This document shows positions 382 through 578 of a DNA stretch of 64,000 nucleotides, one piece after another. The position numbers were made by a program, and so were the translations under genes. The notes below the pieces were generated by a model. The model had not been told where the DNA came from and did no database searches. It saw only the letters and a list, made by a program, of their open reading frames with translations. This DNA comes from a phage: the sequence record PX915676.1. The stretch is one strand, 5' to 3'. Position 1 is the first letter of the stretch. Each line of letters starts with the position of its first letter.

Positions 382-457
382 GCGCTCTTAGCTCAATGGA
401 TAGAGCAGTAGCCTTCTAAGCTATTGGTTACAGGTTCGAGTCCTGTAGGGCGCACCA
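382..457 (+). tRNA. tRNA-Arg (anticodon UCU)
   Basis: Cloverleaf folds by hand: acceptor GCGCTCT/AGGGCGC, D-arm GCTC-AATGGATA-GAGC, anticodon stem GTAGC/GCTAT with loop CTTCTAA (anticodon TCT), T-arm ACAGG-TTCGAGT-CCTGT, discriminator A and encoded CCA. Confidence 0.85.
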
Positions 458-463
458 CATTTA

Positions 464-578
464 GGGCTAGTATGGGTGCGGCACCAGAGTTAGTGTATCC
501 CTGTTGAGGCAAGTGCTTTTATAACAGTGGGAATTGCTTTCTTAGTGAGCTTCTGGTTCGATTCCAGATAGTCCACCA
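464..578 (+). ncRNA. tRNA-like element (non-canonical; possible degenerate tRNA or structured RNA)
   Basis: Canonical T-arm TCTGG-TTCGATT-CCAGA followed by ATAGTCC-A-CCA that pairs 6/7 with GGGCTAG at 464-470, but 115 nt long and no canonical D or anticodon arm could be folded. Confidence 0.3.

Follow-up and report, generated by a model that had tools for sequence, protein, structure and literature searches.

A conserved tRNA-like element of putative alanine type beside tRNA-Arg(UCU) in Kuravirus-type coliphages

Kuraviruses are described as encoding a single transfer RNA (tRNA) (PMC9965538). In the 64,000-nucleotide (nt) stretch of sequence record PX915676.1 analyzed here (hereafter the window), which comes from a Kuravirus-type coliphage of the SU10/phiEco32 group (Gordonclarkvirinae), a canonical 76-nt tRNA-Arg(UCU) with an encoded CCA (382–457, + strand) is followed, six bases further on, by a 115-nt element on the same strand (464–578) that has the two ends of a tRNA around a different interior. 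What is this element? An original prediction, made from the letters of the sequence, had offered three options, namely a decayed tRNA, an interrupted tRNA, or a tRNA-mimic RNA. The last of these is the best supported. As judged from its sequence, the element is a real and conserved tRNA-like RNA, predicted to be of alanine type and of the stable kind that is associated with tRNA clusters.

Anatomy of the element

The tRNA-Arg(UCU) is called by ARAGORN and scores 72.4 bits against Rfam RF00005, in agreement with the original prediction. It is the upstream partner of the element, presumably within one transcription unit. The two are separated by an AU-rich spacer (CAUUUA, 458–463, + strand) between the CCA and G464. 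The last spacer base, A463, is the first base of a conserved 116-nt block (463–578) and may represent the −1 base for ribonuclease P (RNase P). The element itself starts with the 5′ strand of an acceptor helix (GGGCUA, 464–469), which pairs with a 3′ strand (UAGUCC, 569–574) that is followed by a discriminator base, A575, and an encoded CCA (576–578); in the alignments, conservation stops exactly at A578. All six acceptor pairs are invariant in the seven distinct sequences that make up our structure alignment, as is the T-arm that abuts the 3′ strand (552–568), which consists of a UCUGG/CCAGA stem (552–556/564–568) and a UUCGAUU loop. The T-arm, the 3′ strand with its A-CCA, the complementary 5′ strand, and their distance of six nt from tRNA-Arg had all been pointed out previously, and all can be read in the sequence. 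The window contains only two sites for the T-loop motif GGTTCRANTCC when both strands are considered, one in tRNA-Arg and one in the element, and these two are adjacent. Shuffled sequences gave an expectation of 0.2 sites, and none reached two. The tRNA-like anatomy, which adjoins a real tRNA on the same strand, is far beyond chance.

The acceptor helix is of a particular kind. Read from the CCA end, its pairs are G1-C72, G2-C71, G3·U70, C-G, U-A, and A-U, with A73 as the discriminator. The third pair from the end, G466·U572, is a G·U wobble and, like G464-C574, G465-C573, and A575, it is invariant in the seven sequences, which gives the element the acceptor sequence expected of a substrate for alanyl-tRNA synthetase (AlaRS). 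Because G3·U70 with A73 is the identity set of the Escherichia coli AlaRS, to which G2-C71 also contributes, charging with alanine is plausible. Furthermore, the acceptor (GGGCUA/UAGUCC-ACCA) is that of E. coli tRNA-Ala (GGGGCUA/UAGCUCC-ACCA) shortened by a single base pair. It can be drawn with six clean pairs or, as in the ARAGORN drawing, with seven, including a G470·A568 mismatch and leaving a 4-bp T-stem.

Folds were computed with ViennaRNA, and the acceptor and T-arm were imposed for the constrained fold. The original prediction could fold no D-arm, yet the constrained fold contains a D-arm-like hairpin (473–486, + strand), with an invariant 3-bp stem (473–475/484–486) and an 8-nt loop (GUGCGGCA). 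In this loop, G480 and G481 are candidates for the G18 and G19 of tRNAs, and by analogy with tRNA architecture they could dock on the T-loop to form an elbow. One of the few variable positions of the element, G478A, also falls in the D-like loop.

The claim that the element is not a canonical tRNA stands. It has the T-arm with a UUCRANY loop, the acceptor helix, the discriminator, and the CCA of a tRNA, and no canonical anticodon arm, i.e. no 5-bp stem closing a 7-nt loop with U33, a purine at position 37, and the right spacing. ARAGORN made no tRNA call on it at default, intron, or mitochondrial settings, and RF00005 showed no match to 458–582 even at E ≤ 10. No transfer-messenger RNA (tmRNA) was detected either, whether in the tmRNA mode of ARAGORN (-m) or with the Rfam tmRNA clan at E ≤ 10. 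Rfam scans of the region at gathering thresholds and at E ≤ 10 returned only tRNA-Arg, an antisense artefact, and a shifted match to YrlA (RF02553). We rejected YrlA, which scored 14.1 bits (E = 3.7) at 402–510, overlapping tRNA-Arg, against a gathering threshold of 69 bits.

Other identities were discarded as well. Overlapping open reading frames (ORFs) are only 23–42 amino acids (aa) long and have no support as coding sequences, and the absence of any match of at least 12 nt elsewhere in the window, direct or reverse-complement, led us to reject an antisense regulator. A hammerhead-like CUGUUGA (501–507) was dismissed by eye, as the essential A6 and GAAA are absent.

Conservation and boundaries of the cassette

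A blastn search of 50,697 phage records identified the full element in 30 GenBank genomes, with 98.3–99.1% identity over 116 nt. The carriers belong to two genera, being mostly Kuravirus, plus Nieuwekanaalvirus EP335, and the element is annotated in none of the 30 records. The only other matches were short ones to tRNA-Gln T-arms, and blastn found no divergent copy in GenBank phages. When only the 5′ 38 nt or an in silico "spliced" 76-mer were used as queries, blastn gave no match to tRNA-Ala, only a 3′ likeness to the T-arms of tRNA-Gln and tRNA-Ile. There was no match at E ≤ 1 in 5,426 E. coli genomes. Three element-specific patterns had no match in IMG/VR, and a full-frame pattern had none in metagenomes and bacterial genomes. 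A 5′ pattern hit a single IMG/VR locus, L079, which is discussed below, and otherwise coding noise. Bacterial matches to a 3′-only pattern were set aside as chance occurrences in coding DNA or a 3′ fragment of tRNA-Ala. A literature search returned no paper describing the element.

Conservation is confined to the element with sharp edges. Only 4 of the 116 positions in the block vary (478, 487, 511, and 536), as opposed to 13 of the 19 in the spacer directly after the CCA, so that the fraction of variable sites rises from 3.4% to 68% past position 578. Likewise, the mean pairwise difference is 1.4% in the element versus 24% in these 19 nt, and the flanking ORFs are 64–95% identical. Even when the variable sites of the spacer were under-counted at 9/19, a Fisher test gave p = 1.6e-6. 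The block always extends from A463 to A578, whichever of three upstream contexts it is found in: the standard tRNA-Arg, another tRNA-Arg that is accompanied by an HNH gene (CHD5UKE1 and YF01), and rearranged tRNA-Arg remnants (TH38 and TH42, both of which are UNVERIFIED records). In YF01, TH42, and CHD5UKE1, the upstream spacer is different and 10–11 nt long (e.g. AUUUUAAACA), and conservation again begins at A-GGGCUAG.

In the element-free phages ES17 and phiEco32, the CCA of tRNA-Arg runs directly into AAUCAAAUAGGAGG and then the next gene. In the window, a 121-nt block with a second terminal CCA is inserted at this point, which makes the element a discrete cassette. The AU-rich leader that lies downstream of it here directly abuts the tRNA-Arg CCA in these relatives. 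The slot after tRNA-Arg varies across the group: it is empty (phiEco32 and ES17), occupied by this element or by a 95-nt hairpin RNA (ECBP2), or there is an HNH gene beside the tRNA (Paul and YF01).

The few differences between the copies are informative. For the site pairs 478/536 and 511/536, all four combinations are present, which speaks against both a single recent sweep and a decaying pseudogene. The pattern indicates variation that is either old and recombining or recurrent, against a background of 112 fixed sites. Taken with the high identity, the island-like boundaries, and the intactness across contexts, these sequences bear signs of purifying selection.

These data bear directly on the possibility that the element is a non-functional tRNA remnant, hitch-hiking with tRNA-Arg and homing-endonuclease traffic, which looks conserved because it has spread recently. 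Its narrow distribution fits this idea, with all 30 genomes at least 98.3% identical and most kuraviruses devoid of the element, as do the HNH endonuclease genes beside tRNA-Arg in YF01 and Paul and the lack of recognition by any covariance model. However, a remnant would not be expected to show a conservation edge exactly at its tRNA-like ends, next to 19 nt that vary at 13 sites, nor haplotypes that fail the four-gamete test, nor a presence in two genera and three upstream contexts. Moreover, the tRNA-like fold tolerates all four substitutions, and the same acceptor design recurs in unrelated phage tRNA clusters (see below). We consider a remnant improbable, and the decayed tRNA of the original prediction is contradicted by the same identity, flank, spacer, and context data.

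The interior and the question of decoding

In the constrained fold (−30.2 kcal/mol), a long irregular arm of ∼20 bp (487–543, 57 nt, apical loop 511–514, + strand) stands in place of the anticodon arm and is joined to the T-arm by an 8-nt linker. All four variable sites fit this fold. Positions 478 and 511 are in loops, whereas 487 and 536 retain their partners: a G·U becomes an A-U at 487:543, and a U·G becomes a U-A at 494:536. Thus, 100% of the pairs are kept. An alternative, weaker anticodon-like hairpin (528–544, + strand; stem 528–532/540–544, loop AUUGCUU) was found by ARAGORN after in silico deletion. U535-G536-C537 in its loop reads UGC, an alanine anticodon, which becomes UAC in the many relatives with A536. 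This hairpin has U33, U37, two G·U pairs, and a 7–8-nt variable region. When the anticodon-like arm was forced, the fold reached only −25.2 kcal/mol. Because this arm is 5 kcal/mol worse, the middle base of its triplet varies, and the branch formed by the acceptor and the T-arm is 11 bp, we treat the anticodon-like loop as a vestige, which it probably is. The earlier view that the element has no proper anticodon arm thus holds for a canonical arm and overlooked this weak hairpin. The hairpin that had been proposed instead (536–550, presenting TTA) is not supported, as its closing pair is lost with A536 in three of the seven aligned sequences.

The unconstrained minimum free energy (MFE) fold is different. 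CCAGA occurs twice (484–488 and 564–568), and either copy can pair with UCUGG (552–556). In the MFE fold, the first copy pairs with the T-stem strand, which destroys the T-arm. We rejected this fold because it is broken by G487A in EP335. The duplicated CCAGA might nevertheless be a folding trap or a switch, and the EP335 change weakens the alternative pairing.

Could the element still decode? One explanation is that it is a tRNA-Ala(UGC) with an expansion of ∼39 nt at the junction of the D-arm and the anticodon arm, which either persists as an additional arm or is excised through some form of splicing or repair. A deletion scan of the element gave no tRNA at the default ARAGORN threshold, and at a 95% threshold a single call, tRNA-Ala(UGC), upon removal of 486–524; at 90%, equivalent deletions up to 488–526 gave the same result. 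The resulting tRNA has U33, a 5-bp anticodon stem, G3·U70, and A73. In the L079 relative, a similar scan yielded tRNA-Ala(CGC) at the default threshold. On the other hand, the call for the element needs a relaxed threshold and is not significant alone, since an alanine tRNA also emerges from 16% of shuffled interiors, and we downgraded the scan as proof of an interrupted tRNA-Ala after these shuffle controls. The fold with the anticodon arm is 5 kcal/mol worse than that with the long arm, position 37 is a U, the acceptor/T branch is 11 bp, and base 536 in the middle of the anticodon is G or A, which means that the A variants, with an alanine acceptor, would read valine codons. In addition, the L079 phage has a normal tRNA-Ala beside its expanded copy, and E. 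coli already has multiple tRNA-Ala(UGC) genes.

No type of intron fits 39 nt. Group I and group II introns, whose ribozyme core exceeds 200 nt, were rejected because the extra sequence is only ∼39–57 nt and there was no Rfam intron match; 39 nt is too short for either kind, and E. coli is not known to have a tRNA-splicing endonuclease. An intron in the anticodon loop was rejected as well, as ARAGORN -i was negative at default and a call at a relaxed 80% threshold (-ps80) was spurious, spanning tRNA-Arg. A decoding tRNA-Ala ranks below a remnant in our estimation and is unlikely, and the interrupted tRNA of the original prediction survives only as a weak tRNA-Ala(UGC) signal.

Possible role, relatives, and known systems

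On balance, we think it likely, if far from assured, that 464–578 is a functional gene for a non-canonical, alanine-type tRNA-like RNA, a non-decoding mimic released by tRNA-processing enzymes and acting in trans. With a 57-nt long arm where the anticodon region should be, it most likely does not decode. The anatomy, the cassette boundaries, the conservation, and the existence of relatives are shown by the sequences; from these we infer the following course. The element would be co-transcribed with tRNA-Arg(UCU) inside an early-gene operon, and host enzymes would release it, RNase P cutting 5′ of G464, an RNase E-type activity cutting in the AU-rich spacers, and exonucleases trimming to the encoded CCA. 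The RNA would fold into an L-shaped mimic that keeps the upper half of a tRNA with the long arm below, might be alanylated by AlaRS on account of its G3·U70 and A73, and would act in trans on a partner that binds tRNAs, such as AlaRS, EF-Tu, SmpB, or a tRNA-targeting defense protein. For an accessory gene in the early region, a role in counter-defense or host takeover would be plausible.

Several observations weigh against this interpretation. The tRNA-like fold is not the MFE fold (−37.7 kcal/mol), above which it lies by 7.5 kcal/mol, and the z-score of the MFE is only −1.9. There is no true compensatory double change among the kuravirus copies, which are too uniform for covariation statistics and make the shuffle control uninformative. 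The acceptor/T branch has 11 bp (6/5 or 7/4) and not 12, which could impair its use by RNase P, EF-Tu, or AlaRS. The candidate anticodon varies, being UGC or UAC, and shuffled interiors give some tRNA call in 92 of 120 cases, with tRNA-Ala in 19 of the 120 (16%). In addition, the 33 nt at the 3′ end are similar to Jiaodavirus tRNA-Gln (30/33, E = 9e-3), which makes the ancestry of the element ambiguous. Finally, the element is dispensable because most kuraviruses do without it, and its high identity could partly reflect a recent spread by homing or recombination.

A third rival places the function in cis. The element lies in a row of small early genes on the + strand, and no promoter or terminator match was found between the genes that flank it. 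It is followed by an AU-rich leader (579–600, + strand) with a Shine-Dalgarno sequence (AGGAGG, 587–592) and the ATG (598) of a gene for a predicted 93-aa lipoprotein, the start codon of which is 19 nt after the element. The tRNA shape could thus be a handle that recruits RNase P and RNase E to cut the polycistronic early mRNA, or that sets or stabilizes the 5′ end of the lipoprotein mRNA. Both this placement and the very different interiors of the relatives would fit, as only an acceptor and a T-arm would be needed. However, phages without the element have tRNA-Arg identically placed before the same AU-rich leader (CCAAAUCAAAUAGGAGG), so a second handle adds nothing obvious, and a punctuation signal would leave the invariant interior, the kept G·U pair, and A73 unexplained. 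Of the three rivals, all of which rank below a functional trans-acting mimic, we judge this one the least probable.

Similar designs occur in other phage tRNA clusters. We searched IMG/VR with a 3′-only pattern consisting of the T-loop, NNN, and TAGTCCACCA. Its matches include tRNA-like elements in phage tRNA clusters. Because the 3′ strand was prescribed by the pattern, independent evidence for the G·U pair in these matches comes from its 5′ G alone. One of the elements, in L079, is 131 nt long (2352–2482, − strand). It shares with the window element the acceptor, including the G·U pair, the start GGGCUA[A/G]UAUGG, the motif GAGUU(U)AGUG, and a T-stem directly next to a 6-nt 3′ strand. A clean hairpin is present as well (GUGG-UUCGCAG-CCAC), with an alanine CGC anticodon, U33, and A37, and in the deletion scan of this element an alanine tRNA appeared in only 2 of 100 shuffles. 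The L079 element lies 95 nt downstream of the near-canonical 78-nt tRNA-Ala(UGC) mentioned above (2577–2654, − strand). This tRNA is itself odd, as it is called by ARAGORN and matched in Rfam only by a weak tmRNA hit (16 bits).

Other loci carry 64-nt mini elements (GGGCUUA...UAGUCC-ACCA), again with G·U as the third pair, namely L066 (501–564, + strand), L068, and L070, and L060/L078 (7791–7854, − strand). They are located between tRNA-Ser(CGA) and a short tRNA-Arg(UCU), in arrays of 10 to 37 tRNAs, and are called by no tool. Between the two mini lineages there are compensatory changes in both internal hairpins, as read by eye, with the G·U pair retained. The 3′ part of the minis resembles the tRNA-Ala of Pectobacterium phage Wc4. 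L079 and the minis (L060; L066/L068/L070) share the acceptor GGGCU(U)A/UAGUCC-ACCA, and their interiors differ in length and sequence. With the window element, they have in common their position inside tRNA arrays and the T-stem that abuts a 6-nt 3′ strand. A further lineage (L075/L080) has A-U in place of G·U.

From these likenesses a wider proposal can be made, rather unlikely though it is, that the window element, L079, and the 64-nt minis form an undescribed class of phage RNAs that accept alanine without a working anticodon and are charged by AlaRS through G3·U70 and A73 on an 11-bp branch. If such a class exists, its members might mimic the tmRNA domain, occupying SmpB and blunting trans-translation, act as decoys for defenses that target acceptor ends, or donate alanine to a non-ribosomal transferase.

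A separate, marine-type family was also noticed. In environmental phage contigs that are apparently marine, 88-nt tRNA-like elements lie 2–4 nt after the CCA of tRNA-Arg(UCU), at L013 (3135–3224, − strand), L016 (72–160, −), L021 (12685–12773, −), L025 (6028–6116, −), L032 (6334–6422, +), L054 (6569–6657, −), and ∼12 more IMG/VR loci. Each combines an acceptor with a tiny D hairpin (GCA-GGUU-UGC), a long 7+5-bp arm whose 11-nt loop (CYWAGGCGUCA) is conserved, a T-arm, and ACCA. Compensatory changes at six of the pairs provide covariation support, and neither ARAGORN nor Rfam calls these elements. A single family comprising these RNAs and the window element was rejected, as the covariance model of the marine RNAs scores tRNA-Arg (17.8 bits) above the element (8.3 bits). 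Elsewhere, in a 113-kb viral contig (L081, 4456–4935, − strand), ARAGORN predicts a permuted, two-piece tmRNA spanning a site with the 3′ acceptor end of the window element (UAGUCC-ACCA), and GGGCUAC follows ∼28 nt downstream of this CCA. The Rfam tmRNA families do not confirm the call at that position.

Among known systems, RNA C (species 1, 139 nt) and RNA D (species 2, 119 nt) of phage T4 appear to be the nearest analogues in placement, and the tRNA-like domain of tmRNA the nearest in design. The T4 RNAs are stable small RNAs with a role that is still unknown (PMC3014915; PMC9697503). Like the element, they come directly after tRNA-Arg(UCU) and are of similar size; RNA C has a canonical T-arm beside a 3′ acceptor-like strand, and RNA D an encoded ACCA end. 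They were reportedly sequenced in the 1970s, and the function of stable RNAs in phage tRNA operons is said to have been open since. Unlike the element, RNA C lacks both an encoded CCA and a G·U wobble as its third acceptor pair, and the interiors and predicted folds differ. The blastn search against the phage records showed no homology of the element to T4, and the rnaC/rnaD region is matched by no Rfam family that could serve as a model for comparison.

In the tRNA-like domain of tmRNA (SsrA), as in the element, an alanine acceptor (G3·U70, A73, and CCA) and a T-arm are combined with a reduced D region, and a long helix replaces the anticodon arm. In contrast, nothing in the 116 nt of the element points to an mRNA-like domain or pseudoknots, ARAGORN calls no tag peptide in it, and its branch is 11 bp rather than 12. 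Canonical tRNA-Ala has the acceptor sequence, G3·U70, A73, CCA, T-loop, and D-loop GG in common with the element, and possibly a UGC loop with U33, but the element has six rather than seven clean acceptor pairs, ∼39 extra nt, and a weak anticodon arm that competes with a stabler long arm. YrlA and other Y RNA-like RNAs (RF02553) are similarly non-decoding and ∼110–130 nt long, with a tRNA-like module of T-arm and D-arm. YrlA ends in a Ro-binding stem and its acceptor is closed by a loop, whereas the element ends in an acceptor with CCA.

Conserved and unannotated, the element lacks an Rfam model, as do T4 RNA C and RNA D. It illustrates how conserved genes derived from tRNAs can escape the standard tRNA finders in phage genomes. 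It offers an easy experimental case, with E. coli as the host, natural relatives without the element (phiEco32 and ES17), and carriers such as Bas90 and Bas91, the names of which we take to refer to the BASEL phage collection. The specific biochemical prediction is charging by AlaRS that depends on G466·U572. If the RNA were charged and yet non-decoding, it would give a phage a new means of tapping or jamming the tRNA machinery of its host.

The surroundings of the element are themselves variable. The downstream 93-aa ORF (598–879, + strand) has a signal-peptide-like N terminus with a lipobox-like LTGC, and its SU10 homologue is annotated as a putative lipoprotein. In SR02 and others, different small genes replace this ORF, and the whole neighborhood is accessory. 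In Bas90 (L059), the homologous kuravirus region (10179–17385) contains a cluster annotated as RimK-like S6 glutaminyl transferase, amidoligase, COOH-NH2 ligase, glutamine amidotransferase, and gamma-glutamyl cyclotransferase. No link between such a ligase/amidotransferase cluster and a tRNA-like RNA was found, and aminoacyl-tRNA-dependent chemistry is worth bearing in mind. The 95-nt RNA that fills the slot in ECBP2 (L049, 6006–6100, − strand; JX415536, 67513–67607) is a single long hairpin (−44.4 kcal/mol, z = −5.8) with the end CUACCA. It is unrelated to the window element and not annotated, and ECBP2 is the only carrier found. The slot after tRNA-Arg(UCU) seems to gather RNA cassettes that end in ACCA.

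The tRNA-Arg beside the element is a recombination hot spot. Its 5′ half is replaced in TH38 (L010, ∼518–600), and in TH42 (L058, ∼590–700) there is a chimeric tRNA-Arg remnant. YF01 (L057, 674–1189), CHD5UKE1, and Bas91 have a different tRNA-Arg(UCU) with an overlapping HNH endonuclease gene, and in Paul (L002, 1127–1746) an HNH gene comes after yet another, third tRNA-Arg. These arrangements of tRNA-Arg and HNH genes in kuraviruses recall segB in the tRNA cluster of T4.

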